DNA of 64,000 bases from an uncultured virus (IMG/VR IMGVR_UViG_3300033753_000202) (IMGVR_UViG_3300033753_000202), one strand, 5' to 3'; positions 11 to 64,000 are shown, numbered from the stretch's first letter. Numbers and translations are program-made. Notes: a model not told the origin generated them from the sequence alone.

Positions 11-493
11 ATGTTGGAGTCCGCTATCGGTGATATTACGCAAATTCGTGGGGTTGAGTACATCTGCAACGCGGCAAATCCGCAGGGGATCATGGGTGCT
101 GGTGTGGCTGGAGCCATCGCTCGGGCGGCGGGCGAACGTTTTCTTGAAGAGGTTCGTCGTGTCGCGCAGACTTACCGAGTGAAAGCGGGCGGTATCTATG
201 TTACTTCTGCTGGAAATCTCCCTTATCGTGGGATTATTCATTTGGCTTCTGTTCCTGCTCCCGGACGGCATTCGACTTACAGTATTGTGGAGTCGTGCTT
301 GAGGAATTTGGTGCAGTTTGCATCTTCTTCGCAGGCTACGGCGATAGCCCTGCCGCTTCTCGGCACGGGGGTAGGAAGACTTGATCCAGCACAGCTTAAG
401 TCGTTGTATCAGAAGTATTTGCAGGAGCATCGAACGCGCTTTGTGGTGGTCGAGTTTAACCCTGCTGTCTATGAAGCTTTTGTCAGGGGGTAG
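11..493 (+). CDS. Macrodomain (Appr-1-p processing / ADP-ribose-binding) protein
   Basis: Motifs GDIT, ICNAAN, GAGVAGAI, IIH and IALPLLGTGVG are typical of macrodomains; 160 aa. Confidence 0.9.
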   Translation: MLESAIGDITQIRGVEYICNAANPQGIMGAGVAGAIARAAGERFLEEVRRVAQTYRVKAGGIYVTSAGNLPYRGIIHLASVPAPGRHSTYSIVESCLRNLVQFASSSQATAIALPLLGTGVGRLDPAQLKSLYQKYLQEHRTRFVVVEFNPAVYEAFVRG

Positions 494-645
494 TGTTCGG
501 TGTATTTGGTCGAAGATTGTTTTGGTAGTCTGTATTTGACGGATACCAATACCCACGAGTGATTACGGAGTTGGTGGAACCTGCGATTTCCTTTAGCCAT
601 CACGACGGGTTTGGTACCTTACCAACTTAAAAGAGGTGATTCATT

Positions 646-1083
646 ATGGATCAGGTTTTGGCATTCGTTGAGGAGAATTATTTGTACTTGATGGGTATTT
701 TGCTTGTCGCTTTTATTCTTGTGCGTATTATCAAGAGTGTGATTAAGTGGCTTCTGTTGACGCTGATTGTATTCGGCGTGGCGGTATGGGGGTATGTGTA
801 TGTACCGGAGGAGGTACGGGAAGCACCGAAGGAAGTTGCTAAGACATTAGCGCAAGAACAGGTTGACAAAGTATTGGCATCCATTGTTACTGCAACGAAT
901 CTTGATGTTTCTCTCCGTGACGATGGGACGTACATTTTGTCTGCTCGGGTTTATTCTGAGGGTGTGGATATTTTGCTTACTGGGAAACCGGGTTCGGACA
1001 AGGCGACGTTGTATATTGGTAAGGTCAGCAAAGAAGTTAAATTGAGCAGTCAACTTATCAAGTTTATCCAGTCGAAGCTGTAA
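646..1083 (+). CDS. Hypothetical membrane protein (2 N-terminal TM helices)
   Basis: RBS AGAGGTG; two hydrophobic segments followed by a soluble domain. Confidence 0.75.
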   Translation: MDQVLAFVEENYLYLMGILLVAFILVRIIKSVIKWLLLTLIVFGVAVWGYVYVPEEVREAPKEVAKTLAQEQVDKVLASIVTATNLDVSLRDDGTYILSARVYSEGVDILLTGKPGSDKATLYIGKVSKEVKLSSQLIKFIQSKL

Positions 1084-1107
1084 CATTTCCACTAGGGGGT
1101 TATTTCT

Positions 1108-1996: not shown

Positions 1997-2025
1997 TGCT
2001 AGGGGTGCTTAAGCTACCCCTAGCA
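1997..2025 (+). terminator. Inverted repeat after thyA (possible terminator)
   Basis: TGCTAGGGGT-GCTTAAGCT-ACCCCTAGCA stem just after the stop codon; no strong U-tract. Confidence 0.45.
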
Positions 2026-2289
2026 TATGCGCTTCTTCGCGGAAATTTGCTAGTCCTACAGAAAAAAGTTTCCGTGGGCGTGACTTCATAATTACTTCAT
2101 AATCACTTTGAACCTACATCGCACCTACTTTGAGGGTTTGTCTCTCGAGGTAGGTGCTTGTCTTTTGACTGTAACAAAATTTTAAGCCATTTGGGACTTC
2201 GTCTTGACCGTTTCAGAGTCGAGTTGTAATATTTAGGTTGAACGTAGCTTAATTGTAGCTCATTCTTGCTTTGGGTGGTGATGTGTTAA

Positions 2290-2682
2290 GTGACGGAAGA
2301 ACCTCAACGAATGTCGCCTTCGCGAACCACACCGGAGCCTTTGGGCAGAATGAAACGCCATACTCGCTCTTGCATCTTAGCGCTCTTTCATCAGCATAAT
2401 GCACGAGAGGACTATGAAGAGCGGTATCCTTGTTACTGTGAGGAGTGCGAGGGTTGGGGGTACATCCACTACTTACCGGACATTGATTTGGACTTACTGC
2501 TCGATGCTCCAAAGGAAGTTTTCAATCGACAGTACTGTCGTTGTGTCCTTACTGGAAAATGTCCACGTTGTGGGACGGATGATGCTTTTGATCTAGAATC
2601 GGGTGACTGCGAGGAGTGCGGATTTGTTTTAGGTAAAACTGAAGGTATGCCCCTACGTCATCAGTGTAGTTGTTCAGAATAA
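2290..2682 (+). CDS. Cys-rich putative zinc-binding protein
   Basis: Several CxxC pairs (CEEC, CPRC, CEEC) plus CxC motifs; GTG start after GGTGGTG; candidate promoter TTGACC-17-TAATAT at 2204-2232. Confidence 0.65.
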   Translation: MTEEPQRMSPSRTTPEPLGRMKRHTRSCILALFHQHNAREDYEERYPCYCEECEGWGYIHYLPDIDLDLLLDAPKEVFNRQYCRCVLTGKCPRCGTDDAFDLESGDCEECGFVLGKTEGMPLRHQCSCSE

Positions 2683-2821
2683 AGATCGATAATCAGGGGT
2701 AGCGAAACTTTTTTCGGGAACCTCTGTTTTCTTTTCCTACCGAAAGAGGAATTGTACTTATAAAAGTACATTCTTCTTTCGGGAGGTGTGTCTTTTGAAG
2801 AAATCTCAAGGAGGCTTTAAC

Positions 2822-4927
2822 ATGGAAAACGTTGTTCTGTCTAAGGATGTTTTTTCTAAGGATGCACAGGATGTCTCAAAATTTCCGATGAATCGGGAGG
2901 AGCGCCGCATCCTTCGTAGGTTGGCAAGTAAAGATCCTGAACTGGCGGATTTGTTGTCGGATGTTTTGGACAAGCCTGCTGTGAAGCGCACGGTCGACCT
3001 TAAGACGCGGATTAAGCGCTTGTCGGATAAGTCTCGGGCTGTTAGGACGTTCTTTACTCTGTTGGAGTCGGAACAGACTGATGCAGGAATCTTGCTTAAA
3101 AAATCTGACGATGACGAGTCTTTGATTAATCCTTGCTTTACCGGACTTAATTTGACGCTGTTTTTCTCGGCATATATCGCGGCACATTTGGATGTTGTAT
3201 GTAATGATGACTCGTTGCGGGGGTACATCGACAACTATCCGGTAGTTAATGTAGAGACTTTGCCGCCCATGATGCCTATGCAGTATGAGACGATGGTTTC
3301 AACTATTAAACTATATTCCATTCTTCGGGAATGTGAAACCACTGGCAAGCGCGATTTCCTCAATCGTTTGGGGCATACGATGTTCCGCGAGGCATATAAG
3401 GAGGTTAAAAACCAACGCCCTACGGACAAGACGTTTCTTCTGCGGGAGACGCCCGGATTGACGATTTATCCGTCTGTGGTCAATATGTTCTTCTGTGCGT
3501 ACTATGTGGCATCTCAGGGGCATAAGTATTTTCGCGTCTTCTGTCAGACTTTGGAGGAAGCCGCATTGTTCATATCTCCTGAGTACAATAAGGCAGTTCG
3601 GGAGGAACGGCTCGATTCACTTAAGTCGGGCAGGAAGTTGGACTTTCTTGAAAATTTCAAGGAAGCTTTGTTTGAGACGTTACCGGAGTACGATTATCGG
3701 ATGTCGGAGTTGGAAAGTAAGTCTAAGGAAGATGGGGACTCCAAAGAAGCTTCTTCCTTCGGTTGCGCTTTTGGTAATTTTGCGTATAACCACTCTGTCT
3801 ATCGGGGGTATGAGTTCTATCGCCGGGTACGAAGAATGTTGTTGCAACCTGCGATATCGGAATTTGAGAGCAAGTTGAAGTCTCTCCCTAACGTGGAGAA
3901 GGTCGGCATGTCTTTGGTTAAGTCCAATTTGGATGATGACTTTGCCGCCTATGAAAAGCATTATGAGGAGGCAAAGAACGCCGCCGATAAGATTCGGAAC
4001 TCTCGCGGATCGTATATTTATCTGGCGTTCCAAGAATTGATGTCGCTCATGGAAGTTCGCTATTTGCCAGATTTGTTCACGCTCTCGATTGGTGATGAAA
4101 TCATTGAAAGGTTCGAGAAAGCGGTCAATTTGTTTTACTCCCGGTATGGGGGTCGTCGGTTCACCGAGCAGGAGTTGTTGATTTTCTTCTTTGCGATGAT
4201 CTATATTGATGTCGTCGCGGAGAACTATCTGCGGGTTGTGGATCGTAATCTTCGGATGGATGTGGGGGTGGATAATTATGCTATCCGCTATTATGACTTG
4301 AAGGATAAGGCGGAGGCTTTGGAGTCGGAGTTGGAGCAAAAGAATGCGGAAATTGAGGAACTCAAGCGGAAATTGGCTCAAGCTAATCAAACTGTCAATA
4401 GCTTGACTTCTCAATGCGAAGGTTTGCGGGAGGACAACCGCTCTCTTGCAAAGGAAGTTGCACAGCTTCAACGGGAACAGGAGTCTTTTGAACAGGAGAA
4501 GCAACGTCTTCATTCCAAGATTTCGTCGTTGGAGGCGGAGTTGGAGGAGTTCTATAATCAGGATAGCGAGGACACTGAGACTGAGGCTACTTACGAGGAG
4601 ATGATCGAATTCCTTCGCGGGCTTGATGTGGGTATTTATGGGGGTACTGTTAAGTGGGCGAATCGGGTTCGTGAGGTCTTTCCTAGCTTTCGCTGGTTGG
4701 AGTACACCAACAATGCACAGACGAACATCGACTACATAACGAGTCGGGATTTTGTCTTTATCAATCCGCGTACCATTGGGCATGCGATCTCGGAGCGGGT
4801 TCAACGCGAAGCGTCTAAGTATTGTCGGGTTCTCCATTGGAGCGGCGGTTTTGAGGAGTTTGTTAAGGAGATGTATATCTTCGCTAAGAAGAAGTTGCAG
4901 GAGGAACAGGAGGCACTCTCCAAGTAA
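2822..4927 (+). CDS. Coiled-coil protein with C-terminal DUF2325-like alpha/beta domain
   Basis: RBS AAGGAGG before ATG 2822; long heptad region (LESELEQKNAEIEELKRKL...); C-terminus GIYGG...FVFINPRTIGH resembles DUF2325. Confidence 0.7.
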   Translation: MENVVLSKDVFSKDAQDVSKFPMNREERRILRRLASKDPELADLLSDVLDKPAVKRTVDLKTRIKRLSDKSRAVRTFFTLLESEQTDAGILLKKSDDDESLINPCFTGLNLTLFFSAYIAAHLDVVCNDDSLRGYIDNYPVVNVETLPPMMPMQYETMVSTIKLYSILRECETTGKRDFLNRLGHTMFREAYKEVKNQRPTDKTFLLRETPGLTIYPSVVNMFFCAYYVASQGHKYFRVFCQTLEEAALFISPEYNKAVREERLDSLKSGRKLDFLENFKEALFETLPEYDYRMSELESKSKEDGDSKEASSFGCAFGNFAYNHSVYRGYEFYRRVRRMLLQPAISEFESKLKSLPNVEKVGMSLVKSNLDDDFAAYEKHYEEAKNAADKIRNSRGSYIYLAFQELMSLMEVRYLPDLFTLSIGDEIIERFEKAVNLFYSRYGGRRFTEQELLIFFFAMIYIDVVAENYLRVVDRNLRMDVGVDNYAIRYYDLKDKAEALESELEQKNAEIEELKRKLAQANQTVNSLTSQCEGLREDNRSLAKEVAQLQREQESFEQEKQRLHSKISSLEAELEEFYNQDSEDTETEATYEEMIEFLRGLDVGIYGGTVKWANRVREVFPSFRWLEYTNNAQTNIDYITSRDFVFINPRTIGHAISERVQREASKYCRVLHWSGGFEEFVKEMYIFAKKKLQEEQEALSK

Positions 4928-5185
4928 CCTTTCTGTGATACACGCCTTTCGCATCTTCGTTACGAGGAACTGTCCTTGTAACGGGGTATTTTTCTTTGAG
5001 ATACAAGTTGTTGGGTTGAACGTAATCTTTCCGAATCGGAACGTAAGTCTATTTTATATAGATGCTTCACTTTATGGTTACAGTAGAACCTACATTGGAC
5101 GGGGTACTGAGGTGGAAAGGAATGAGTAAGGTTCCAAGTGTACTCTAACCCAAGTAGTCTTAAGAGGAAAGGAGTTTGACCAGTT

Positions 5186-5512
5186 ATGACTACATCGCCC
5201 ATTTCGCCCATTTCTCGCCGCGAGGTGAAAATCGCTTTCAACAAGCCTATGCATCACCCGAGGCTAGGCACGTATTATCGCGGTTGTTTCACTCTTGATC
5301 TGGACACTTTTATAAAGTTCGTCGGCAACCCGACCAATCCGCGCTCGATGCTTTATCTCGATCCGCGAACCAAGCGAAACTGCTACTTCTTGAACTTGAT
5401 GGGGCGCGACGCTCTGGTGGACTTTTTGCGTAAGCACAACATTCCTTTTGATGCAAACCGGGCTTTCGCTCCCGGTGTCAATTACTACATCGACGTGCGT
5501 CTTCCCGAGTGA
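5186..5512 (+). CDS. Hypothetical protein
   Basis: RBS AAAGGAG; 108-aa ORF in the gene-dense orientation. Confidence 0.7.
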   Translation: MTTSPISPISRREVKIAFNKPMHHPRLGTYYRGCFTLDLDTFIKFVGNPTNPRSMLYLDPRTKRNCYFLNLMGRDALVDFLRKHNIPFDANRAFAPGVNYYIDVRLPE

Positions 5513-5655
5513 TTTCTTCACGGTTCCTTCACCGCCCTTTTCTCCTATATTCGCCCGTGTTCAAATTAGGACTTATCGCAAATCAACTTGATTGGCAGAT
5601 AAGTTCAAGTGTATAAGGGCTTAAAAATAGAGAGAAATAGGGCGGTGAATCATCT

Positions 5656-6726
5656 ATGCTTCGCATCATAGCCACTTTTCGTCCTCTCGGTTCCAAGCAG
5701 ATCGTGGGGTACCGTTTGTTAGTCGAGGACAAAGCTACCTTAGCCAAGCTTCACGCCAGCGGTTATCACTTCAGGGGTAATGTTGGCGACTTTTCGCCGC
5801 AGGAGACCTTTTTCTTGCTGGTCAACTTTGGTTCGATCAATGCCAGCGTCACCAATAATCAAATCACCTTGCTGGATGGTTCGATGGACTCACTCCCGAT
5901 TCTCAATCCGCGGACTGGACAATGCACGGACAATAACAATATTATCGTCCTTGCGTCGATTACCTATAATGATGAGGTCATCGGTTATCGGGTTTGCAAC
6001 TACACGGGAGCTATCGCGCAACTGCGCTATAACGACTTGCTGATCAAAGCCAAGCAAGGTTTCGCGAACGCCAAGATTGTTCATCGCGACGGGAAAGCCT
6101 TCATCTCCGCGATCAGGGGTACTTTCCCGACGACTCCGCTTCGCACCAAGGATGACCATATGCCCCGCGCTGTGATACCGACGGGTTCCAATTATCAAAC
6201 CCTTGTCGATACCACAAAACAGCGTGGAAACGTTAGCATCCCGGTGAAGTATTATGCTGACCCATCTCGCATGCAGACCGATCCGCCCACCAGCACAGGG
6301 CATGTGGCACTTACCGATAAGGGTGAAGTGGTCTATCGGTATCGAAACGAGCATGGTGACCCGAAGTTTGCGGTTGTTCCTAAGAACGTTTTTAATACCA
6401 ACTTCCAGTTGGGGGTAGCGTCGAGCGTCACTAAGCAGGAACTTGCCAACACCCCTCCCGCTCCGGCACCTACGCGAACCAACACCAAATACCTGCGAGA
6501 GGTCACGGAGAAGTATGGGATTGGTACCACCCTTAATGTTTTGTTCTTTCAAGGCACGACCAAACTTGCCGGACAGGTGCGCTTGAATCGCGGGGTAATC
6601 CATTTGCGGTATCGCCCAGATCCGAATGCGGATTTCAAGGTTGTGCAAGTCTCGGAGGCGGACTTCGATAAACACTTCCGTATTCAGGGGGTAATTCAGC
6701 CTAAGCCGCAACCGAAGTCATCTTAA
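5656..6726 (+). CDS. Hypothetical protein; N-terminal domain paralogous to 59875..60357
   Basis: RBS GGCGGTG; shares (G/R)YRLL, IVLxx..xxGYxVxxY and NAxxV motifs with the 59875 protein. Confidence 0.75.
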   Translation: MLRIIATFRPLGSKQIVGYRLLVEDKATLAKLHASGYHFRGNVGDFSPQETFFLLVNFGSINASVTNNQITLLDGSMDSLPILNPRTGQCTDNNNIIVLASITYNDEVIGYRVCNYTGAIAQLRYNDLLIKAKQGFANAKIVHRDGKAFISAIRGTFPTTPLRTKDDHMPRAVIPTGSNYQTLVDTTKQRGNVSIPVKYYADPSRMQTDPPTSTGHVALTDKGEVVYRYRNEHGDPKFAVVPKNVFNTNFQLGVASSVTKQELANTPPAPAPTRTNTKYLREVTEKYGIGTTLNVLFFQGTTKLAGQVRLNRGVIHLRYRPDPNADFKVVQVSEADFDKHFRIQGVIQPKPQPKSS

Positions 6727-6953
6727 CTTTCCTTCCCGCTTTCGTTTTCCACCCCTCCCCATAGTGAGAGGGGTATTTAAGCGAGTAAACGGAAAAACTA
6801 AGGACTAAGCGAGTAAAAATCTCGACTTTCCGTTGAACAGACTTTCTTTATACCGACTATTTTGTTATAATAGGCTCATCAGCTTCCGAGCTAACGCTAA
6901 GTTATACCGAGTCTCTCGGTTATAATAACGCTGTGTTGAAGGAGGGTTTTTCA

Positions 6954-8654
6954 TTGGACATGCATACCGTCTACTCGCTTCAGAATCGGAACTTCTCGGA
7001 TGCGGTTCTGGCGCTGGACACGCCGCTTGTTCGGCAACTTTCGCTTCTCGCACTCCAATCGGGGAAAGAGGGCAAAATTGTCAGCTTCATTATGCGTGAC
7101 CGCGTCTCGAATCGCGGGCAGGTTAAGGAGCGGGGTATTCCGGCATCGGAGAAATCGGTCGTCGATATCTGCAAGCTCACACCTTTGGTCGGGGGTAATG
7201 GCGCAAGCACGCTGTTGGAGGAGATCGCGCTTTATCGCGCCAATACCATCGACTTCAAGCCTTCGAAGGGCGACCTGCGTTCTTATGCGGAACTGTTGAT
7301 GGCGGACTATCTGATGTCCACTGCTCTCTGCTATGTTGAAATCGCCAAGCAGGGGCAAATCCGCGATAAGTTCTTGCTCACGCGCAACCCGCAAATCGCC
7401 GCTATTCTGGCGGACAAGTTGGAAAGCCCGCAGGACGTTGCCAAGTATCAACGCGCTCTTGTTACTTACACGTCGCACTACGAGAACAAGAAGCTCCCGT
7501 ATCTCAAAATCAACCTCAAGAAAACGGGCTTTTCGGTCACGGTTCCGAAAAATCCACTGGACTTTTTGTTCCCGATGAAGATCACACCGCTCTTTTTCAT
7601 CACCACTTTTGTGCAAGAGCTGACGAAGGTTCTGCAGGAGAAGATGGTGCGGGTCACCTTCATCAAGGATGACCTGTATGAGCGTGAGGTGGTCACCACC
7701 CTTAACCGGGAAATCCTCGGCAAGTATTATGACGAGGATTTCATTCAGGTTATGTTCTCGAATGTGGGCACCAACCTCGGTCGGGGGTATATCAAAGTGC
7801 CGGAACTCGGCAGTTCCAAGTATGACGCCACGGGCACCCGTTCCATTAATTTGGCGCGGATCACCAGTGTCAGTTTGGTCGAGACCTTCGACACGCGTTT
7901 CATCAACGTTGACCTGTCGAAAGTCCAGCCCGCTTTCGAGCATATGATCAGCACTTGCACTCGCCCAGAAATTCTGGCGAAGGTTTATCGGGATTTGACA
8001 GGGAATCCGCCGCAAAACACCAATATCTTCGTGTTGAAACAGCACTTGACGGACGAAATTCAGCGTATTGTGGCGGCAACCAGCACGACGGGTCTGCGTG
8101 ACTTGCATCTGTATATGATCGCCAATCCGAATATTTTCGTCAGCTATAACAGCGGGGTACCGATCAACTTCCTCAGTATGATTGACCCGGCTCTCGGTGC
8201 GGTGCATCAACCGACTGGCGCGTTTGGAGTGGATGCCCCGATTCGGACTGGGGGTAATCCAATCAAGCCGCCTTCGGACGTTCCGGTACCGCCGATGCCC
8301 GCGACCGCCGCACCGAATGCGGCTCCGATGTGGGGAGGGGTACCGCGCTCATTGGGTGGTGCGGCTCCAACGGGGCAGAAGCCTGTGAATCCGTATCAAG
8401 CACCGAAGCCCGCGCAAGCGGCTCCTGCGGCTTCGGGAGCGGCTTCGTTTGCGGTTCCTGCGGCGATGGCGGCAAATGCCCCTGTCACTCCGCAAAACGC
8501 GCAAGGCGCTCCAAGCGCCCCGTCCGATCCGTCTGTTCCGGCAACGCCACCATTCTCGCTTGGCGCGGCTCCGAAGTCGCTCGGAGGTGCAACGCCGACG
8601 ACAACGCAGGATGCGGCGAAAGCGGTATCCAAGCTCCCACCGCAGTTCCGTTGA
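6954..8654 (+). CDS. Hypothetical protein with WYL_2/Sm-like beta-barrel-like domain and Pro/Ala-rich tail; paralog of 8882..10576
   Basis: RBS AAGGAGG before TTG 6954 (alternative ATG 6960); VRVTFIKDDLYEREVVTTLN...TRSINLARITSV; low-complexity P/A C-terminus. Confidence 0.75.
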   Translation: MDMHTVYSLQNRNFSDAVLALDTPLVRQLSLLALQSGKEGKIVSFIMRDRVSNRGQVKERGIPASEKSVVDICKLTPLVGGNGASTLLEEIALYRANTIDFKPSKGDLRSYAELLMADYLMSTALCYVEIAKQGQIRDKFLLTRNPQIAAILADKLESPQDVAKYQRALVTYTSHYENKKLPYLKINLKKTGFSVTVPKNPLDFLFPMKITPLFFITTFVQELTKVLQEKMVRVTFIKDDLYEREVVTTLNREILGKYYDEDFIQVMFSNVGTNLGRGYIKVPELGSSKYDATGTRSINLARITSVSLVETFDTRFINVDLSKVQPAFEHMISTCTRPEILAKVYRDLTGNPPQNTNIFVLKQHLTDEIQRIVAATSTTGLRDLHLYMIANPNIFVSYNSGVPINFLSMIDPALGAVHQPTGAFGVDAPIRTGGNPIKPPSDVPVPPMPATAAPNAAPMWGGVPRSLGGAAPTGQKPVNPYQAPKPAQAAPAASGAASFAVPAAMAANAPVTPQNAQGAPSAPSDPSVPATPPFSLGAAPKSLGGATPTTTQDAAKAVSKLPPQFR

Positions 8655-8657
8655 TCG

Positions 8658-8682
8658 GAAGGGGAGGAAGACCCTCCCCTTC
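8658..8682 (+). terminator. Stem-loop, likely intrinsic terminator
   Basis: GAAGGGGAGG-AAGAC-CCTCCCCTTC immediately after the stop codon. Confidence 0.65.
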
Positions 8683-8881
8683 TTACCTAGTGGGGTACTG
8701 TCCATTTGGTACGGAAACATTCGAATCCTGTTTGTGTTACATTTTTCCCAATGGGACTTATCGTTTTGTTCACCCTTTATTTTTCGTCGCATAAGTTCTT
8801 GTACCCTAAGTATAGGGACTAGGACAAGCGGGTATACTCAAAGCAAGGAATTAAAATTTTCAGTAACGGAGGTTGTGTTTC

Positions 8882-10576
8882 ATGTCGCTTCATCCTCAAG
8901 TTCGGGACATTTTCTACCCGAATGTCGCCAACTCCCCGTATGCGGATTTGTCGGCGGTCGCTGGCAACGTTATGTTGGCGGCGTTCCAAGGTCGGACTTC
9001 GAGCTTCTTCCACGACTTTGCGGGGTACTTCAACGCCGTTCCCGGCGCGGCGAATTATCTCGCTAAGCTCGGACGCAACACCATCGGTCAACTGCACCAA
9101 AACAATGGTTGGAAGGGCGATGTTGAGAAGCTTCTTGAGGGGGTAACTCCGGCGTATGCCGCTATCTTCCAAGCGCTGTCCGATCTGATTTTTGTGGGTC
9201 TGGACACTACAAAGGAAGGTTACCCGACGGCACTCTACACTCGTTCTTTCCACGTCATCAAGCGCATGGTGGATGCGGGTATGGTGCAACCGGACAACGT
9301 GAACAAGGTTATGAAAGACCTGACGGGCACCAAAACAGCAAACGGTGTATCGGAAGGAACCTTCTGCGTGGTGCGTTTGGACTTCGAGCAGTACGTAAAC
9401 GGTATTCCGACTTTCAAGCTGACGGTTCCGCGTTCCAATCTCAAGGTTCTTGGCAACGATGCGGAGTATATGCTGGTACCGCTCATCTTCTATGCGGTTT
9501 TCAGCCAAATCCTGCAAAATGCTACGGCGGAACAGGCGTTTGAGTTCGAGAAGACTTCGGTCACGGGTAACATTCGGCACCAAGCCACCATCAGCCCGAA
9601 TGTGGTTAAGTTGGTGTACGCCAATTCTGACCCGGAGGACGTGGAAGCCAAAATTCGTCGTATTCGTCCGGGGTACGATCCGATCCGACAACGCTACACG
9701 CTCTACGATCTGGAATCGTCGGTCTATTCGCTCGGACTCGCGTCGTTCCGTCCTGAGATGCTTAACTACGTGAAGATTATCAATCCGCATTCCATCAATA
9801 CCGCTTGCCACAATGTGGACTTTGATGTTCTGCGGCAAATCTTCGCTACCCGCATTCGCGCTCTCAAGGCGGCGCAACTGGACGCGTTCAAGTACATTGA
9901 TCTCTCCAGTTACGCCAATATGACCGACAAGCAGAATGCTCTTATCGAACAGGCTGAAAAAGAGGATAATCGCAAACTGCTCTCGCTCATGCAAGCGCAC
10001 CCGGAAATCTTCGGAGACATCAATGAAGCCCTCGAAAAGCGTCGTCGGATTATGCCGAAGTTCCTCAAGGGCTTCCAGCCGGTAGAACTGCCGAACACCG
10101 AGCAAGAGCGCGTCGCCCTTCTGCGCGATCTCTTATCCAAGGGGGTAGTGCAGTTCGTTACTACGACGAAAGACGGTCGCGTGTCGGGTAAGCTGGCTTC
10201 TAACAATTCGAAGGTGTTGGAGCGTATCTACGGTAAGGACTACGTCCAAAAGTACGAGACGGTTAGCCTTCGAATCAAGGAAGTCAAAGCCGCTATTGAA
10301 CGCGGTGAGGTCAAGAGCCGGAAGGAAGCGGAGGAGTTGGCGGTTAAGTTCAATATCCTTCCTTCCATCGATGCGACCGAGTATCTCAAGGGCGGTAAAG
10401 CGACTCTTGCCGCACTTGACACCGCGATCAAGGAGTTGGAGGAAAAGTCGGCTTCCCGTACTCGCAACCCGGCGTATGTGCTGTATCGTAACCTGAAAGC
10501 GGAAAATAGCGACAATTTCTATGGTCAGGTTAACGTAAACTCGCTTATCTCGGTGGAGTTCCGGGCTTACGAGTGA
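8882..10576 (+). CDS. Hypothetical protein with two WYL_2/Sm-like beta-barrel-like segments
   Basis: RBS GGAGG before ATG 8882; FEFEKTSVTGNIRHQATIS...LYDLE...LASFRPEML and VVQFVTTTKDGRVSGKLASN...YRNL...VNVNSLISVEF. Confidence 0.75.
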   Translation: MSLHPQVRDIFYPNVANSPYADLSAVAGNVMLAAFQGRTSSFFHDFAGYFNAVPGAANYLAKLGRNTIGQLHQNNGWKGDVEKLLEGVTPAYAAIFQALSDLIFVGLDTTKEGYPTALYTRSFHVIKRMVDAGMVQPDNVNKVMKDLTGTKTANGVSEGTFCVVRLDFEQYVNGIPTFKLTVPRSNLKVLGNDAEYMLVPLIFYAVFSQILQNATAEQAFEFEKTSVTGNIRHQATISPNVVKLVYANSDPEDVEAKIRRIRPGYDPIRQRYTLYDLESSVYSLGLASFRPEMLNYVKIINPHSINTACHNVDFDVLRQIFATRIRALKAAQLDAFKYIDLSSYANMTDKQNALIEQAEKEDNRKLLSLMQAHPEIFGDINEALEKRRRIMPKFLKGFQPVELPNTEQERVALLRDLLSKGVVQFVTTTKDGRVSGKLASNNSKVLERIYGKDYVQKYETVSLRIKEVKAAIERGEVKSRKEAEELAVKFNILPSIDATEYLKGGKATLAALDTAIKELEEKSASRTRNPAYVLYRNLKAENSDNFYGQVNVNSLISVEFRAYE

Positions 10577-10604
10577 TTGATCTTTCCGGTTTGTCCAACT
10601 TTCT

Positions 10605-10634
10605 GACCCCGAGCGATCCAGCTCGGGGTCTTTT
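10605..10634 (+). terminator. Intrinsic terminator
   Basis: GACCCCGAGC-GATCCA-GCTCGGGGTC followed by TTTT. Confidence 0.8.
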
Positions 10635-12288: not shown

Positions 12289-12336
12289 GTCTCAGGGGTA
12301 TTATCAAAAATCTCATGTTGAAAGGATGTATGTTGG

Positions 12337-57392: not shown

Positions 57393-59495
57393 ATGTCGGA
57401 TATGGACAAAATGCCGGAATCCGAATCCCCTCAAGTTCGAGGGGAGTATAACGACGATAGTATTTCGTCCAAGAAAGGCGCGGCACGGGTACGCGACCGG
57501 GTGTCCGTTATGTTCGGTACGGACAATGTCCACGGGGCGTTTCATAGCGTCATTGAGATCGTGGGCAACTCGATGGACGAAGCCCGTTCGGGATACGGCA
57601 ACAAGCTGATCGTCATCTACCATGAAGACGGTTCCGTTTCAGTGCGTGACTTCGGTCGCGGGGTACCAATGGGTTGGAACGAGAAGGAACAGCGTTACAA
57701 CTGGGACTTGGTCTTCAATGAGCTGTATGCTGGGGGTAAATATGCCGAAGAGGTTGAAGATGAAAAAGACCTTGCTTATGAGTTCCCGATGGGGCTTAAT
57801 GGTCTGGGTGCAACCTCGACGCAGTACACTTCGGCTTGGTGCAAGGTTATCTCGTACCGCGAAGGTAAAGCCTTCTTGAAGGAATTCAAGGAAGGTAACC
57901 CACTGGACATGGGACCGGCTATCGAACTGGAAAATCCCAATAACGAAACGGGTACGCTCGTTCATTGGAAGCCGGACGATAAGGTCTTCACCAGCACGGA
58001 CTTCACGCACGAGATGTTCATGCGCTTCTTGATTCCGCAAGCGCATCTGAACAAGGTGACGATTGAGTTCACCAACCTGCGCCACGGCAAGGGAACCGTT
58101 GTGATCGAAGGTCTGGGGCTGGAAAAGTACTTCCGGCAAACCATCGGTGAAGAGAATATCATCGCGATGTACTACGGTACGCGCAAAAACTCCGGTAAGG
58201 AAGGCACCAAGAAGTTCCGTACTAAGGCGGACGTTTATCTCGCCATTACGGAGGACTCCAAAAACCGCATGATGTTCTTCCATAATACCGGGGTAATGAA
58301 TCAAGGGGTTCATCCCACGGTTACGGACGCGGTGCTGTCGCGTTTCTTCTCGCGGCTTGGTCGTGAGCAAGGGCTGACTGTTCTGCCGATGGACTATAAG
58401 GATTATATCAGCGTGGCGATCAGTTCCTTCTCGAACACTGAGGTCACGTCCTTCATCGGTCAGACCAAGGACGGGGTAACCAACGCTTTTATCGCGGATA
58501 ACATTGAATACGTGCTGGCGGATATTCTGGAAACCGAATATGCGAAAAAGTCGCCAGATTTCATGTTCATGGTGGAGCGCGTACTCGCCGCCGCGCAAGC
58601 GCGTAAAGAAGCGAAAGAACGCGAAGCCCAACGCCGTAAGCTGGAACGTGCTTCGAAGTCCAGCCGTCGTCCGATTGATAAACCGGACACGCTGGTCGAC
58701 TGCATTTCGCGTGACCCGGAGAAGACCGAACTCTATATCACGGAAGGTAACTCGGCGGGTAGTTCTTGTAAAAAGGCGCGTGACGCTAATTACCAAGCCA
58801 TCCTCCCTCTCCGGGGTAAACCGCCGAATGGTCTGAAGTTATCGCTCGACAAGCTCCTTGAGTTGGAGGTTGTCAAGACCATCATCAAGGCGCTTGGTTG
58901 CGGGGTAGATGCTTCGGTTGATGGGGTTAGTACCTTTGATGAATCGAAGCTCCATTGGAGCAAAATCATCTTTGCAACCGATGCGGATATTGACGGTCAG
59001 CAAATTCGGGTTCTGCTGTTCACGCTGTTCCTGCGGCTGTTCCCGAAACTGTTGGAGAATGGTTATGTCTACGTTGTCGAGTCGCCGTTGTTTGAACTCG
59101 AAATCTCGGATGATCTGTCGTGGTTCGCTTATAGCATTGAGGAGCGCGACCAGCTCATGGCGAAGGCGGCGCGTGAGGGTATCAAGATTCGCAAGATTCA
59201 TCGTTCTAAGGGTCTTGGCGAAAATAACCCGGAAATGCTGTGGCATACGACTATGAACCCGGAAACTCGTCGTTTGGTGCAACTCAAGATCGATCCGAAG
59301 AATGAGACGGTTCGGAAGATCTCCGACATGCTGTTCGGCAACGACGTCAACAACGAGCGTCGGGATTATGTCTTCGATCTGCTCAGCGAGAAAATCTCGT
59401 TGGATATGGATTTGAAGCTTCTGGCTGAAACTGTTGAGGCGTTGGAGTCTGGTGATAATACGGAAACCACTCCGCTTGAACAGGAAGTTGGCTAA
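57393..59495 (+). CDS. Type IIA topoisomerase B subunit (GyrB/ParE-like)
   Basis: EIVGNSMDE, DFGRGVP, LYAGGKY, GLNGLG, TOPRIM EGNSA, PLRGK, TDADIDG, KGLGE; cannot distinguish gyrase from topo IV. Confidence 0.95.
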   Translation: MSDMDKMPESESPQVRGEYNDDSISSKKGAARVRDRVSVMFGTDNVHGAFHSVIEIVGNSMDEARSGYGNKLIVIYHEDGSVSVRDFGRGVPMGWNEKEQRYNWDLVFNELYAGGKYAEEVEDEKDLAYEFPMGLNGLGATSTQYTSAWCKVISYREGKAFLKEFKEGNPLDMGPAIELENPNNETGTLVHWKPDDKVFTSTDFTHEMFMRFLIPQAHLNKVTIEFTNLRHGKGTVVIEGLGLEKYFRQTIGEENIIAMYYGTRKNSGKEGTKKFRTKADVYLAITEDSKNRMMFFHNTGVMNQGVHPTVTDAVLSRFFSRLGREQGLTVLPMDYKDYISVAISSFSNTEVTSFIGQTKDGVTNAFIADNIEYVLADILETEYAKKSPDFMFMVERVLAAAQARKEAKEREAQRRKLERASKSSRRPIDKPDTLVDCISRDPEKTELYITEGNSAGSSCKKARDANYQAILPLRGKPPNGLKLSLDKLLELEVVKTIIKALGCGVDASVDGVSTFDESKLHWSKIIFATDADIDGQQIRVLLFTLFLRLFPKLLENGYVYVVESPLFELEISDDLSWFAYSIEERDQLMAKAAREGIKIRKIHRSKGLGENNPEMLWHTTMNPETRRLVQLKIDPKNETVRKISDMLFGNDVNNERRDYVFDLLSEKISLDMDLKLLAETVEALESGDNTETTPLEQEVG

Positions 59496-59513
59496 CTTCA
59501 TACTGCCGACTTT

Positions 59514-59551
59514 GAGGGTTGAGAACTGACCAATTTGTTCTCAGCCCTCTT
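59514..59551 (+). terminator. Stem-loop after topoisomerase B
   Basis: GAGGGTTGAGAAC...GTTCTCAGCCCTC. Confidence 0.65.
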
Positions 59552-59874
59552 AACGTTTTTGGACACTAATGTTATAACAATCGCATAATTTTACGACTCA
59601 AAGTAACCTCAACCGATTCCTTGCTGGTCGCTTTGTTAATAGGAGAGAGTTTTATATTATATTAGACGGAAAAAGGTGTAAAAATTTACGATTTTCATTC
59701 TTCACGGCTGTACTTGGCGTAATCTTCCTATACGAACTCGGTAGTTAACTGTAACACTTTAATGTTATAATAAAGGAAACGAAATCGTCCTGTTTATGGA
59801 CTTGTATCGCTCTCTTTCGGATCAGGTGGTAAGTTACAATAACCATTCAATTCTTTTGGAGTGGAGTTGGTGTC

Positions 59875-60357
59875 ATGGATGGAAAGTTCAAAATTGTAGC
59901 GGTGTTGCAGGGGCAACCGCTCTTTACAGGGAATCGGTATCGTTTGCTTTCAATCTATACGGGTGAGTGGTGGGATTTGCCGCTTACTGCGATTATGCAA
60001 CATGGGTTTAAGATTCAGTTGGGTCGTGTTTTTGTTCCGACTGCGTTGGACTATCCTGTTTTTAGTCCGTATGACGGACTTAGTTACGAGTTGCCATTCA
60101 TCCCAGAGGGGAGAAATGTTCCCTCACGGAACGATACGGTTATTGTTCTTGGTGAGAAGCGGCGCGGTACGGAGGTACAGGGGTATTGGGTTACGGATTA
60201 TCAAGCTCAAATTCACTTTTTTGACATTCCTACAGCGCTCTCCTACGCGGATGTGGGGTACTGGAATGCGGAAGTTGTAGAAGGTAGATTGAGTCCTAAG
60301 CAACTTCACATTCCATCCTTTCCGGGATTATCTTCATTCCCGGTTTTATCTTTATAA
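59875..60357 (+). CDS. Hypothetical protein; paralog of the 5656 N-terminal domain
   Basis: RBS GGAG; VIVLGEK...VQGYWVTDY...NAEVV. Confidence 0.7.
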   Translation: MDGKFKIVAVLQGQPLFTGNRYRLLSIYTGEWWDLPLTAIMQHGFKIQLGRVFVPTALDYPVFSPYDGLSYELPFIPEGRNVPSRNDTVIVLGEKRRGTEVQGYWVTDYQAQIHFFDIPTALSYADVGYWNAEVVEGRLSPKQLHIPSFPGLSSFPVLSL

Positions 60358-60374
60358 GGAGGAGGGGTTCTATT

Positions 60375-60995
60375 ATGCAGATTAGAAATTTGGATATTGA
60401 TGTTCTCCATCTTCGCTCGAAGTATGTTAGGTTGCCCTATGAAGGGAGACCTCGGGCATTTTTCGCTTTTAATCTTGGAGAAGTGTCTCGCGGTTTTCCT
60501 TATAATGTTGTGTTGATTGATGCTGATATTCTTGAAGGCGACGATGATCCGGCGGCTTGTATTGAACAGGCGAATGTTAAAGTGGACGTGGTGCAAGGGT
60601 ACCCAGCTATTATTCGCATTCCCGGCAAGCCACAAGGAAGTCTCTTGTTTTTCACAGGGGTATACGCGAGTTATGATCAATCGCATGCAGTTTTGGCGGG
60701 GCATGTCAATATTCATTTGCAGAAGCCGGGACAAGTTCGTGGGGTGGACGTGATCGCTTGCGGTTTGCTTCCGGTAGCGCGACAGGTAGCGTCAGGGGTA
60801 AATGGTTTGGCTGAGAATGCGGTGTATCGGGTTCCTGAGTATGCAAATTATTCCCTTTGGCAACCGCAAGTTGGGGCGTACTTTTCGGTCAATACTGGAC
60901 GTCCGATCTCTCCGGTAAATTCGGGTTTTCCTCTGAAAAAGACTGCGGCTCTTTATGATCGTTCTTTGCGGAAGCTTGGGTTGACTAGGCGTTAA
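60375..60995 (+). CDS. Hypothetical protein
   Basis: RBS AAGGAGGAGG; 206 aa. Confidence 0.75.
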   Translation: MQIRNLDIDVLHLRSKYVRLPYEGRPRAFFAFNLGEVSRGFPYNVVLIDADILEGDDDPAACIEQANVKVDVVQGYPAIIRIPGKPQGSLLFFTGVYASYDQSHAVLAGHVNIHLQKPGQVRGVDVIACGLLPVARQVASGVNGLAENAVYRVPEYANYSLWQPQVGAYFSVNTGRPISPVNSGFPLKKTAALYDRSLRKLGLTRR

Positions 60996-61012
60996 ATTTG
61001 TGACTGAGTTGG

Positions 61013-61041
61013 TTGACACTTGCAGAGGGGTTTATTAAAAT
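61013..61041 (+). promoter_or_regulatory. sigma-A-type promoter for topoisomerase A subunit
   Basis: TTGACA-17 bp-TAAAAT. Confidence 0.75.
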
Positions 61042-61190
61042 AGGAACATAATTCCGTATGGTGAAGTAAGTGTAGATTTTTACACTTACTTTACTTTTTG
61101 CCCAAACAGGGGTAAATTTTCGCAGTATGTGTTGCAGTGGTTTCATACTTAACATGGTTTTATCAATTTTACTTATAGGAGGTTGTTTCT

Positions 61191-63350
61191 GTGGCGAAAC
61201 GTCAGTATGACTCCAGTCCGACTACGGATCTGGATTTGGAGTGGTTGTCGCGGAACGATCCCGACACTTTGCAGGCACTCCAGTTCCTGATTCATTGGTA
61301 CTCGGAGTATGCTAAAGAGGTTGTTATCGACCGCGCCATCATCAATCTGGACGGTTTGAAGCCTGTCCAACGCCGCATCCTCTATGCGATGCATAAGAAG
61401 GGTTGGTACAATGAGCTTCACAAGAGCGCGAAGGTTGTCGGTGACATTATTTCCCTCCACCCGCACGGTGACGAGAGTATCTATCTCTCCATGACGCGGA
61501 TGGTGTCCAGCTCCTTGTACTTCAACTTCCCGATGCTGGACGGCAAGGGAGACTTGGGTTCGGTTTATTCCAAGAGCAAACCAGCCCATATGCGTTACAC
61601 TCAAGCTACGCTCAATGACAATGCGAAGCTGGCTTTCGAGGGCATGCGGGGTATTGACATGGTTCTCACTGAAAGCGGTGAGGATTATGAGCCTTCGCTT
61701 CTTCCGATAGCGGTTCCGCTTGGACTGCTGAACGCCAGCTCGGGTATCGCGGTCGGGATGGCTTCCAACATTCCGTCTTTCAACTTCCATGAGGTGTTGG
61801 AGGCGACGTTGGAGTATATCGAGACGGGCAACATCACCAAGCTCTTGGTACCGGACTACACGATGGGTTCCGATATTGTCATCTCGGAGAGCACGCTGAA
61901 GCGGCTCCGCGATGAGGGGAAAGGTTCCTTCAAGCTTCGGGCAAAATGGGTTGTTGATGGGAATACTATTCGGTTCAGCGAAATTCCGTATTACACCACC
62001 ATCGATGAAATCCTCAGCCAAATCGCCAAAGCCCAAATTCCGGGGGTATCGGACTACCGGGAGATCACGGACTTGCGTCGAGTTGGTATCGAGGTGGTTT
62101 GTTCCAGCAAGAATGCGGTTTCCACAGTGCTTCCGCAACTTCTGAAGAACACCAACCTGCAAATGACCGTTCCGGCGAATATGATGGTCATTGTTCGCGA
62201 CCGTCCGAAGTTGGTGGGTATCAAGGACTACATCCACGAGTGGTTGGAATTCCGCAAGGAAGTCGTGCGTCGGGAGCTTACGGCGGAACTTGAAGCGGTC
62301 AATTTTGAGATCCCGCGCTACGAACTGTTGGTGGATTTGCTTGGTACCGATTATAAGCGTGAGCGTTTCATGGCGACGTTGTCCAAGCAGGGTACGAAGG
62401 AAGCTCGCATGGTGCTTCGGGAGTTCTACCCGGACGCGGACAACGATATCTTCGACTGGATTCTCGGTATGCGGCTGTCCTCACTTGGTGGGGTAGGCAA
62501 CAAGGGCGCTCGTCTGGAGCGACTGTATGCGGCGCGGAAGCAACTGGAATATGACCTTGAGCACATTCCGCAGTATATCGCTAAGCAACTGCGCGAGTAC
62601 AATCAGAAATACAGCTTCCCACGCAAAACCACGGTTTCCGACGTCGACTACACCTTTGAACGTGAAGCTCCGGCGAAGGTTGAACTTCCGGCGATGCCTT
62701 GTATTGTGCAACTGGATGGGAAGTTCTTCAAACGCTACAACGTAGACGTCATCACGAAGAACTACGAAGGTATCCGTTGCTCGTCGAAGGACGTTATCTC
62801 GATGATCGACACGCACGGTCGACTCTTGCGTGTCAAGGTCGAAGACATCGAACCGGTCTCTGGAAATGGGCGTGGCGTTTATCTGCCGTCCTTCTTGGAG
62901 ATTCCCGACGATTTTGAAATCGTTGCGTGCGATGTCATCTCGGACAAAAAAGTAGGTTATGTATACTCCGATGGTTTCGTGTCCGTCTTGGATCTGTCCG
63001 AGTGGGCGGATAGCAAGCGCACCACCCGGATGACGCAGAATGGGGTATCTCCTGAAGCCTATAAGATCATCGCTGAGTTCCCGATTCCGAGCGAGTACTT
63101 GTACGTTGTCACGTCGAAGGGACGTTTTGGTTTCTTCACTGCCAATGAGTTCAAGCACAAGCATCGCACGGCTCGAACCAAGCTGATCAATCTTAAGCCG
63201 GGAGAAGATCTCACTTATGCGTTGCCTGTTTCCGGCGTGGATCTGCTGAAGTTGGTCAGCAACGCGGCGCGTTATATCGACAAGCTCGGGGCACTGGCGG
63301 CGGACGACACCTTCAATACGGAGTATCTCAACACACTGAGCGGGGCTTAA
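61191..63350 (+). CDS. Type IIA topoisomerase A subunit (GyrA/ParC-like)
   Basis: DGLKPVQRRILY, KSAKVVG, HPHGD, catalytic MRYT, LLNASSGIAVGMASNIP; shortened, degenerate C-terminal domain. Confidence 0.95.
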   Translation: MAKRQYDSSPTTDLDLEWLSRNDPDTLQALQFLIHWYSEYAKEVVIDRAIINLDGLKPVQRRILYAMHKKGWYNELHKSAKVVGDIISLHPHGDESIYLSMTRMVSSSLYFNFPMLDGKGDLGSVYSKSKPAHMRYTQATLNDNAKLAFEGMRGIDMVLTESGEDYEPSLLPIAVPLGLLNASSGIAVGMASNIPSFNFHEVLEATLEYIETGNITKLLVPDYTMGSDIVISESTLKRLRDEGKGSFKLRAKWVVDGNTIRFSEIPYYTTIDEILSQIAKAQIPGVSDYREITDLRRVGIEVVCSSKNAVSTVLPQLLKNTNLQMTVPANMMVIVRDRPKLVGIKDYIHEWLEFRKEVVRRELTAELEAVNFEIPRYELLVDLLGTDYKRERFMATLSKQGTKEARMVLREFYPDADNDIFDWILGMRLSSLGGVGNKGARLERLYAARKQLEYDLEHIPQYIAKQLREYNQKYSFPRKTTVSDVDYTFEREAPAKVELPAMPCIVQLDGKFFKRYNVDVITKNYEGIRCSSKDVISMIDTHGRLLRVKVEDIEPVSGNGRGVYLPSFLEIPDDFEIVACDVISDKKVGYVYSDGFVSVLDLSEWADSKRTTRMTQNGVSPEAYKIIAEFPIPSEYLYVVTSKGRFGFFTANEFKHKHRTARTKLINLKPGEDLTYALPVSGVDLLKLVSNAARYIDKLGALAADDTFNTEYLNTLSGA

Positions 63351-63376
63351 TGCCCCGCTTTTTGGGAGGTTCCGGT

Positions 63377-64000
63377 ATGAAAATCAGTTTGAGGTATGGG
63401 ACACCGCCAAGGGATTTCGAGGCATCGGTCGACTCTATTGTACCCAAGCCGATTGAGTTGGCGGTGGAGAACGTTGGGGATTTTCCGTCGCAAGCTCGGT
63501 CGTTGCAGTTTTATGTCCAGTCCCTGAAGTACCTCTTTCAAGGGGTAACCAACATGGTGACAGGGAATTTGCTCCGTCTTTCGGTCGAGAAGAGTTGGTT
63601 CGGTAAGATCGAACGTGACGGCTTCTCAATCAAGTGGGAACCCCGGATCGACAAGTTTTTCGTGGTGGTTTATTCGCTTGGTGACGCTAAGTTGGATGAG
63701 GACATGTACGTTGCCGATGTGGTGTATTCCACGAAAAGTGGTCGTATTGATACACAACCTGTATGGCTCAACTCGCTCTTGAACCAGAAGAGCAAAGCCG
63801 CCGCGATGGAGAAGGAGCATCTGACGGGCGCTATCGCCGCTGTCACTAAGCACATTGGCTCTTGCTCTTTGGTGTACACGAACGACAAGTTGACGGTCAT
63901 TGACCGTCGTCGGAAGAAGCAGATTCAAGTGGAAGACATTCCTTCGGATGAAGTGTACGTCTTGGTGCGTCTTATCTATCGGATTTTGAGTAAAGGACTG
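63377..64000 (+). CDS. Hypothetical protein, truncated by the window end
   Basis: RBS GGGAGG, ATG 63377, open for 208 codons to the edge (MKISLRYGTPPRDFEAS...). Confidence 0.75.
   Translation, partial: MKISLRYGTPPRDFEASVDSIVPKPIELAVENVGDFPSQARSLQFYVQSLKYLFQGVTNMVTGNLLRLSVEKSWFGKIERDGFSIKWEPRIDKFFVVVYSLGDAKLDEDMYVADVVYSTKSGRIDTQPVWLNSLLNQKSKAAAMEKEHLTGAIAAVTKHIGSCSLVYTNDKLTVIDRRRKKQIQVEDIPSDEVYVLVRLIYRILSKGL

Follow-up and report, generated by a model that had tools for sequence, protein, structure and literature searches.

A strand-polarised and evenly spaced GGGGTA word in the pXO16 plasmid family, possibly a dispersed set of priming sites

We analysed a stretch of 64,000 nucleotides (the window, to which all positions refer unless another record is named) of the uncultured virus record IMGVR_UViG_3300033753_000202 from IMG/VR. 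This stretch comes from a metagenome contig of 228,941 bp, which has a 99.4%-identical relative of 273,468 bp. Our analysis centres on a hexamer, GGGGTA, which forms an array of 164 copies on the + (coding) strand from 368 to 63547. Every plausible gene is also on the + strand, where 54 open reading frames (ORFs) cover 0.897 of the window; the GC skew was positive in all 16 bins and the G+C content was 48%. Most of the encoded proteins have no known family. Those recognised were Macro, ThyA, NrdI, NrdE and NrdF, a DnaX-like clamp loader, YdjM, thymidine kinase, SprT, an SNF2 helicase, GyrB-like and GyrA-like proteins, and VirB4-like (DUF87) and FtsK/SpoIIIE-like ATPases. The NrdI, NrdE and NrdF genes (16874..20557, +) appear to be cargo, and the DnaX-like clamp-loader ATPase (21739..23214, +) is predicted to be one of the replication genes that the element brings itself. 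A run of genes at 23356..44312 (+) codes for membrane-anchored proteins, among them those of 732, 1855, 745 and 781 aa; it is syntenic with the transfer (tip) region of plasmid pXO16. These ca. 20 kb precede the adjoining genes of the VirB4-like transfer ATPase (44316..46379, +), which was our marker for finding relatives, and of the FtsK/SpoIIIE-like membrane ATPase (46536..48968, +), a candidate coupling protein of the TcpA type. The GyrB-like and GyrA-like topoisomerase genes (57393..63350, +) lie close to the right end. For the 781-aa protein there was no relative in the genome-contig collection and only three in the protein collection. Capsid, portal and terminase families were not seen in the family scans of the window, and there were no tRNA or Rfam matches, either here or in a gene-free region of pXO16 described below.

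An earlier reading of this DNA, made from the sequence only, had put the word at about 160 copies on the + strand and about six on the other, one about every 400 bp. Our recount gave 164 GGGGTA and six TACCCC (copies on the - strand), with a mean spacing of 388 bp (median 331 bp, largest gap 1505 bp). Eight of the nine positions quoted were exact, the ninth (58803) being actually 58813, and the array begins at 368 instead of 487. The density along the window ranged from 7 to 14 copies per 4 kb. Base composition alone would give 22.6 copies on the + strand, and Markov models 18.2 (order 1, that is, the dinucleotide level), 25.0 (order 2), 44.5 (order 3) and 108.8 (order 4). Inside the + strand ORFs we found 142 copies, against 25.3±4.6 (maximum 37) in 200 synonymous-codon shuffles within each gene and 17.9±4.1 when the order of the codons was shuffled. 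The enrichment had been expected to vanish under such shuffles if it were spurious, and it persisted under both kinds of shuffle, as well as against the Markov model at the dinucleotide level. Among all hexamers GGGGTA was by far the first against the synonymous-shuffle null (z=23.4; runner-up z=6.3), and longer words did no better, so the hexamer is the core of the signal. There is a window-wide preference for (G)GGGGTA[Y], and 14 of the 23 non-coding copies read GGGGTAYT.

The copies fall in the three codon frames (67, 35 and 39), with a further 23 intergenic or at gene boundaries; together with the far lower shuffle nulls, this bears out the earlier view that protein sequence is insufficient to explain them. 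Gly-Val pairs were written GGG-GTA in 67 of 121 cases, where codon usage predicts 6.3, and the word was used in 39 of the 69 X-Gly-Tyr opportunities and in 35 of the 79 frame-1 (third-phase) ones. About half of the protein-neutral chances to write GGGGTA are taken in the window. As had been noted, household-type genes carry it too: seven copies in NrdE, six in the GyrB-like gene and four in the GyrA-like gene. It had also been noted that some copies double as ribosome-binding sites while most are internal, and this is correct, since six copies (19447, 21729, 23344, 24256, 40449 and 48978) end 1-7 nt upstream of a start codon. The first of these (19447..19452, +) would, by its distance from the start, double as the G-rich ribosome-binding site for NrdF. 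A ribosome-binding function for the word as such was considered and rejected: at most 4% of the copies precede starts, and the variants found in relatives (GGTATC and GTTTAT, see below) do not resemble a Shine-Dalgarno sequence. True Shine-Dalgarno-like heptamers are depleted within the window genes.

The array is also more regular than chance would make it. The coefficient of variation (CV) of the gaps was 0.74 against 0.99 for random placement, with none of 5000 simulations equally even, and gaps shorter than 50 bp numbered four where 19.4 were expected. The - strand copies, on the other hand, are at chance level, six observed against 5-8 expected; they lie at 2015, 14950, 25510, 33590, 34958 and 38343 (span 2015..38348). 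One of them (14950) and the + copy at 14937 form the two arms of an inverted repeat resembling a hairpin, GGGGTA...TACCCC, at 14937-14955. A second intergenic, G+C-rich inverted repeat with a motif copy, GGAGGGGTAGC...GCCCCTCC, is found at 34519-34545. Both look like intergenic terminator hairpins.

The VirB4-like ATPase led us to the family to which the element belongs. We found at least 423 proteins related to it, the contigs that carry them reaching 410 kb, and in tblastn it matched 21 plasmid records, three of which were examined. The best plasmid match was NC_018516.1 (39.8% identity over 90% of the query), that is, pBTHD789-1, a 349,599-bp plasmid of Bacillus thuringiensis HD-789 which is identified as pXO16 in the accessible part of PMC6199540. 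Window and plasmid share a syntenic run consisting of an AAA/DnaX-like protein, a YdjM-type hydrolase, a giant membrane protein, the VirB4-like and FtsK-like ATPases, an SNF2-type helicase and the GyrB/GyrA-like pair; in pXO16 the FtsK/SpoIIIE gene is 2.3 kb downstream of the VirB4-like gene. Judged by these genes, the window element is a distant relative of pXO16, the 350-kb conjugative plasmid of B. thuringiensis sv. israelensis, with which it shares the homologous VirB4-like ATPase, the syntenic run, the one-strand gene arrangement and the same GGGGTA polarity. The two differ in G+C content (33% in pXO16 vs. 48%), in the preferred flank of the word and in NrdE, which pXO16 does not have. 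Conjugative transfer is known, from the literature, only for pXO16 itself, and the window element is placed next to it by its genes. According to the accessible text of PMC6199540, pXO16 is conjugative, all its coding sequences share one orientation, it moves single-stranded DNA through a distant relative of the T4SS (type IV secretion system), and it mobilises plasmids lacking an origin of transfer (oriT) provided that their single-strand origin is intact and correctly oriented. The relaxase and the oriT of pXO16 are described as not identified in the part of PMC9673590 available to us.

A profile of the VirB4-like protein found 10 loci in IMG/VR; seven of these records were read whole or nearly so and two as 22-kb loci. 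In the genome-contig collection it found only two short contigs of metagenome-assembled genomes (MAGs), labelled Clostridia and Oscillospiraceae, and neither blastn with 7.7 kb of the element nor tblastn with the VirB4-like ATPase gave any match in the phage collection. An exact 40-mer likewise had no match in IMG/VR. IMG/VR files the relatives G001-G005, G008, G009 and G011 as viruses (‘provirus’, ‘direct terminal repeats’, with CheckV completeness of up to 100%), and G001 encodes a protein with a phage-tail-lysozyme domain. DNA nearly identical to window positions 26001-36000 occurs in compost, phyllosphere, mixed-culture, bioreactor and sheep-gut metagenomes from 16 studies; five of these runs may derive from the source sample. 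The stretch is contained in 20 sequencing runs, always as assembled contigs and including a single RNA run; one metatranscriptome holds a quarter of the words sampled from this region.

A polar word, the same or shifted, was found in pXO16 and seven other relatives. In pXO16 there were 658 GGGGTA on the coding strand and five on the other, with 13-26 copies per 10-kb bin round the whole circle, a gap CV of 0.71, a largest gap of 2071 bp and the flank AGGGGTA[G/T], all this at 33% G+C. The ratio of + to - copies was 281:4 in G001, 246:6 in G002, 164:10 in G003, 192:6 in G004 and 121:12 in G005. When each word was ranked against all permutations of its own letters in the window, pXO16 and G001-G005, GGGGTA came first of 30 in five of these seven elements (the window, where it had 164 copies against a permutation median of 21, pXO16, G001, G002 and G003), and GGGTAT came first of 60 in all seven. 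The leading word of G005 is GGTATC (454:21, first of 180). More distant relatives have their own versions, GTTTAT (583:83) and GTTTA (1297:335) in G008, and a weaker GGTTA (722:139) in W03, a plasmid of B. velezensis. The polar word thus drifts along G-K-K-T-A from one lineage to another, always keeping the TA, and the search for polar words in related elements that the sequence-only reading had suggested found GGGTAT, GGTATC, GTTTAT and GGTTA. No polar word was present in W04, a Bacillus plasmid of 146 kb that looks ordinary and has genes on each of its strands, nor in G009, a 59%-complete record. In every element with a motif the spacing was more even than random (gap CV 0.63-0.90).

The one-strand architecture goes along with the word. 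In eight relatives, the share covered by ORFs of at least 150 aa was 0.68-0.86 for the + strand against 0.00-0.04 for the - strand; nearly all ORFs of the motif-bearing elements are on the motif strand, and their GC skew was never negative in any 10-kb window. The + strand being G-rich throughout, it might be asked whether the word is a neutral by-product of strand-biased mutation or composition. We consider this barely credible, as the first rank of GGGGTA among its 30 permutations in five of seven elements, the use of about half of the synonymous opportunities, the under-dispersed spacing and the conservation of the sites above background all go against it. This conservation was measured between two relatives that are 84.6% identical, in which 26 of 34 GGTATC sites were kept, as opposed to 39.6% of all hexamers (p=1.4e-5) and 41% of words of the same letters. 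On this comparison of sequences, the motif sites are under purifying selection. Between the window and its 99.4%-identical relative 16 sites are common, one has been gained and one lost; in pXO16 a few of the window's sites recur at the same codon, but most do not. NrdE has no ortholog in pXO16, G001 or G002, and its seven copies in the window suggest that incoming cargo DNA is brought up to the standard motif density.

The signal does not appear to have been taken from the host. We used as host controls a 235-kb plasmid (NC_018509.1) resident in the same B. thuringiensis strain, with GGGGTA counts of 15/21 against 31/31 for a control word, and the genomes of two MAGs containing related contigs (169/193 and 436/454); the B. 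thuringiensis chromosome was not among these controls. None of the three was enriched, from which we conclude that this is a signal of the element, not of the host, and host enrichment, named beforehand as the finding that would overturn this interpretation, was not seen. Chi and other skewed oligomers of chromosomes are G-rich and lie on the G-rich strand, as GGGGTA does, and the element might have copied a host signal with these properties, Chi-like or otherwise active in recombination or repair. Chi, read by RecBCD or AddAB, is nevertheless host-wide across replicons, while GGGGTA is enriched neither on NC_018509.1 nor in the MAG genomes, and the same hexamer is common to elements that differ in habitat and in G+C content (33% and 48%), so that we regard such an origin as very improbable. 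The DNA uptake sequences (DUS) and uptake signal sequences (USS) differ as well, being common in both orientations and filling the host chromosome, against 164:6 and controls that are not enriched. With a polar word in pXO16 and seven relatives, its absence from the controls and the purifying selection, the proposal of an element-wide cis signal, read by something that the element brings along, has gained considerable support.

What kind of reader could this be? Three properties narrow the choice: the lack of a flip, the neutrality of inverted copies, and a density that is unchanged in ORF-poor DNA (see below). The polarity was plotted round whole replicons, as had been proposed, using complete circles or terminally repeated records (pXO16, G002, G004 and G005); + copies were never outnumbered by - copies in any 10-kb bin, so it flips nowhere. 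This rules out a reader tied to two arms that meet at a terminus, as are those of the FtsK-orienting polar sequences (KOPS), the SpoIIIE recognition sequences (SRS) and chromosomal Chi. In addition, inverted copies are as frequent as the permutation median (6 vs. 5.5 in the window, 5 vs. 7 in pXO16, 4 vs. 5 in G001, 9 vs. 5 in G003) and hence neutral, and this suggests a reader for which only one strand counts, be it as single-stranded DNA or as RNA. A motor travelling on double-stranded DNA would be harmed by inverted copies, and their neutrality disfavours it for this reason.

The sequence-only reading had compared GGGGTA to KOPS and SRS and had proposed the FtsK-like ATPase as its reader. 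There is a real likeness, as those too are G-rich polar words strewn over a replicon and read by a member of the FtsK family, of which the window encodes one. KOPS and SRS, however, are 8-mers several kb apart; their orientation reverses at the terminus, and it is a gamma domain that reads them. GGGGTA is a hexamer found every ca. 400 bp, with no flip and no selection against inverted copies, so that this analogy fails. Nor did the ATPase of the window give any Pfam match to a gamma domain in its last 110 or 210 residues at E-values of up to 10; its C-terminal tail, like those of its GGGGTA relatives, is acidic and unconserved among them, which makes it a poor candidate. A related alternative is that the word is a directional signal that loads or stimulates the FtsK-like coupling ATPase or another T4SS-like part, thus acting as a dispersed substitute for an oriT. 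The encoding of this membrane ATPase beside the VirB4-like one suits the idea, as do a uniform polarity round the circle, which would serve a one-way thread, and the neutrality of inverted copies, provided that the motor reads the transferred single strand only. But an evenly spaced site every 400 bp far exceeds the needs of a loading signal, KOPS-type signals flip at the terminus, the gamma domain is missing by Pfam, and we know of no coupling protein that reads sequence. It can be added in favour of this alternative that no relaxase or oriT is known for pXO16, as far as the accessible part of PMC9673590 goes. All in all we think it rather unlikely. The clt repeats of Streptomyces, also known as TraB recognition sequences (TRS), cluster in one short locus, unlike the evenly spread GGGGTA.

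A reader of RNA has also to be considered. Either the transcript, through GGGGUA, or the non-template strand, through GGGGTA, could recruit a factor that sustains the transcription of very long operons or that protects or processes their RNA. With every gene of the window and of its relatives on the motif strand the word is in every transcript, the inverted copies would be neutral, and a GGTA core is present also in the ops element read by RfaH. However, no NusG-family protein was found above the cut-off in five of five elements, known antitermination signals occur once per operon and not every 400 nt, and the motif density is unchanged in the ORF-poor DNA of pXO16 (40 copies in 21 kb, or 1.91 per kb, against 1.88 per kb overall), which includes a stretch of 4.4 kb without genes. 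Besides, GGGGU is Shine-Dalgarno-like and its counterparts GGTATC and GTTTAT are not, and ribosome-binding sites account for no more than the few copies mentioned. We therefore give this explanation little weight. Opposite-strand genes do not form a block in any relative. The product of the sole sizeable antisense ORF (122617-125151 in the record of G004) is a coiled-coil protein of 844 aa that has an LPXTG anchor; the ORF contains GGGTA once on each strand, where 7.5 would be expected, and the GC skew of the + strand is still 0.14 there. Being low in the motif on both strands and apparently recent, it does not help to tell a DNA-level signal from an RNA-level one.

The 4.4-kb stretch of pXO16 (NC_018516.1, 40088-44524) carries no annotated gene and lies just downstream of the gene for a Toprim protein that is discussed next. 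Its sequence is packed with repeats of 25-60 nt, dispersed at distances of 100-350 bp, and also includes a short array in which an 11-nt unit is repeated in tandem; the stretch could be an origin or a regulatory array.

The replication genes of the relatives provide a candidate reader. Five elements were searched first: W01 (NC_018516.1), G001, G002, G004 and G005. All five have a DnaB-like helicase, a family A DNA polymerase of 1133-1311 aa and a stand-alone CHC2 zinc-ribbon protein of the DnaG type (178-216 aa); Prim-Pol and polymerases of families C and B were not found in any of them. The zinc-ribbon protein was then seen in all eight motif-bearing relatives, including G003, G008 and W03 (172-216 aa), and in neither of the two without a motif, W04 and G009. 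A separate protein of ca. 260 aa, made up of the end of DNAG_N and Toprim_2, is encoded in seven of the eight (including G003 and W03). The DnaG-type primase of the family thus appears, from these domain assignments, to be split into two genes, unlike DnaG or T7 gp4. The zinc-ribbon protein of G001 aligns to the structures of primase zinc-binding domains (1D0Q and 2AU3) with the zinc ligands in place. In the five elements first searched the two genes are 25-130 kb apart, and the zinc-ribbon protein carries a C-terminal helical extension of ca. 90 aa. In pXO16 the GyrB/GyrA pair is followed by the DnaB-like helicase and then by the CHC2 zinc-ribbon gene. The window ends at this pair, and by synteny both genes are expected just past its end; its final ORF is not a DnaB-like helicase. 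Between helicase and zinc-ribbon gene pXO16 has about 10 tandem genes for proteins of ca. 190-230 aa without family (NC_018516.1, 174560-180741), and the other relatives only 2-4 genes; many paralogues are mentioned for pXO16 in the accessible part of PMC6199540. For the other readers suggested earlier, the SNF2, HU-like and 15041 proteins, no specific evidence was found, and the best candidate would be the zinc-ribbon protein, placed outside the window by synteny.

Our favoured reading, which we hold tentatively and at somewhat less than an even chance, is that GGGGTA marks strand-specific priming sites for this split, element-encoded primase on the strand that is copied discontinuously. Priming was one of several functions listed in the sequence-only reading. 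A pXO16-family element would bring its own replication set, with the family A polymerase, the DnaB-like helicase, the DnaX-like clamp loader, the type II topoisomerase and the split DnaG-type primase. Copying of its + strand would always be piecemeal. With one-way replication of the circle, running the same way as transcription, this strand would be the lagging-strand template, and in conjugation it probably also enters the recipient as the single strand, to be primed repeatedly on arrival. The zinc-ribbon protein would read GGGGTA on the single strand, and the Toprim protein would start the primer opposite the T of the terminal d(GTA), making pppAC and then adding Cs.

Several observations agree with this. 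The motif is on the G-rich strand in all the elements, which is the usual lagging-strand template, and even spacing is what is expected of a signal that has to cover the whole molecule. A trinucleotide of the initiation type is kept as the word changes, d(GTA) in GGGGTA, GGGTAT and GGTATC, and d(TTA) in GTTTAT and GGTTA. The transfer of single-stranded DNA by pXO16, combined with the need of mobilised plasmids for a single-strand origin, suggests that second-strand synthesis is a limiting step. As reported in the accessible part of PMC2978363, the DnaG of Firmicutes starts at d(CTA) or d(TTA), opposite the middle base and leaving the 3' base uncopied, and the zinc-binding domain of DnaG sets the start-trinucleotide specificity and can work in trans on a separate catalytic domain. 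The d(CTG), d(CTA) and d(TTA) sites of DnaG and the GGGTC, TGGTC and GTGTC sites of T7 gp4 are, as we propose for GGGGTA, short words on a single-stranded template that are read by a zinc-binding domain (PMC2978363).

There are also points that weigh against priming. No primase gene lies within the window, and its presence in the window's own element is expected by synteny alone; a search with the G001 zinc-ribbon protein found 16 close relatives, none of them on the 273-kb contig. All genes being on the motif strand in every relative, a signal at the level of RNA or transcription predicts the same pattern. Known primase sites comprise 3-5 bases and are common by chance, whereas GGGGTA has six, is raised 6- to 10-fold and lies on one strand; the primase sites of phage T7 are not polar and are little enriched (GGGTC 39/55, TGGTC 79/62, GTGTC 43/42). 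Known DnaG primases need three bases, which makes a requirement for six unusual, and bacterial Okazaki fragments are 1-2 kb long, with the motif denser than that at one per 210-620 nt. The two zinc-ribbon residues responsible for specificity in cellular DnaG do not track the motif, being IF in pXO16 and RY in G001, both with GGGGTA, and no Toprim_2 was detected in G008 despite its motif and its zinc ribbon. Finally, family membership confounds the association of zinc ribbon with motif, as of the two relatives that lack both, W04 has no one-strand architecture and G009 is 59% complete.

Another type of reader would be a different DNA protein of the element, with the word serving in coating or compaction, in partition or cohesion, as an anti-defence mark of ‘self’ or in a strand-specific modification. 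The motif is element-specific, conserved and evenly spread, the function of most family proteins is not known, and the window is under clear pressure from restriction systems, all of which would accommodate such a protein. Yet a binder of double-stranded DNA has no obvious need of a strand polarity of 96-99%, the window showed no gene for a methyltransferase or any other modification enzyme, and direct evidence for such a reader was not found. This seems to us an unlikely explanation, if one deserving some weight.

Other words of the window are also biased. CTCTTC is absent from the + strand, where 20.3±4.0 would be expected (200 synonymous shuffles, minimum 10), and GAAGAG is found there 67 times instead of 42.2, a polarity of 67:0. 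One-way orientation without depletion of the duplex site fits, by analogy, the pattern of evasion of a Type III restriction system; the bias is weaker in relatives (15/361, 18/112 and 42/193). The bias of Type III sites in phage T7 (CAGCAG, EcoP15I; CTGCTG 36:0) resembles that of GGGGTA in that an asymmetric word is all one way, but it comes without over-representation, while GGGGTA is enriched ca. 6-fold and its inverse is not depleted. GCAAT and ATTGC are nearly absent from the window (one each, against 48.9 and 56.1 expected), and GGACC and GGTCC are scarce (4 and 0 against 37.7 and 30.6), which looks like avoidance of restriction sites. GCAAT is not avoided in pXO16, G001 and G002. In these three GGTCC is found 1, 0 and 0 times and GGACC 17, 17 and 23 times, so that GGTCC is missing from the + strand family-wide.

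Plasmids have other means of priming the transferred strand in the recipient, for example Frpo/ssi of F, Sog of ColIb-P9 and TraC of RP4. Known single-strand initiation signals are structured, measure 40-300 nt and sit close to the oriT as one or a few sites, and in this they differ from a dispersed hexamer with hundreds of copies. We may speculate further that GGGGTA stands in for a single oriT or single-strand origin as a ‘self’ code of the whole family, dispersed and co-evolving, by which a relaxase-less conjugation system and the split primase would recognise, orient and re-prime their own strand across 130-400 kb and ignore host DNA. This is an appealing possibility to which we nevertheless attach a low probability. 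If true, it would be a kind of genome-wide cis signal that has not been described for any plasmid or phage.

In the accessible literature, which does not extend to the two primary pXO16 sequence papers, the GGGGTA motif is not mentioned, and we found nothing relevant there linking pXO16 with a primase or dealing with strand bias of primase sites. Polar words and primase sites were already known; what is new is an evenly spaced, never-flipping hexamer that drifts between lineages and extends over entire replicons of 130-350 kb. In practical terms, it is a simple signature for finding members of the family and for orienting their strands. If priming by the split primase is indeed its role, this would be the first replicon to rewrite about half of its available synonymous sites for its own primase, with the word drifting from one lineage to another. 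pXO16 transfers at very high frequency (PMC6199540, PMC9673590, in their accessible parts). It has been studied for more than 30 years, and the polar word offers a concrete handle on how elements of this kind replicate or transfer, and bears on how pXO16 does so without a known oriT.

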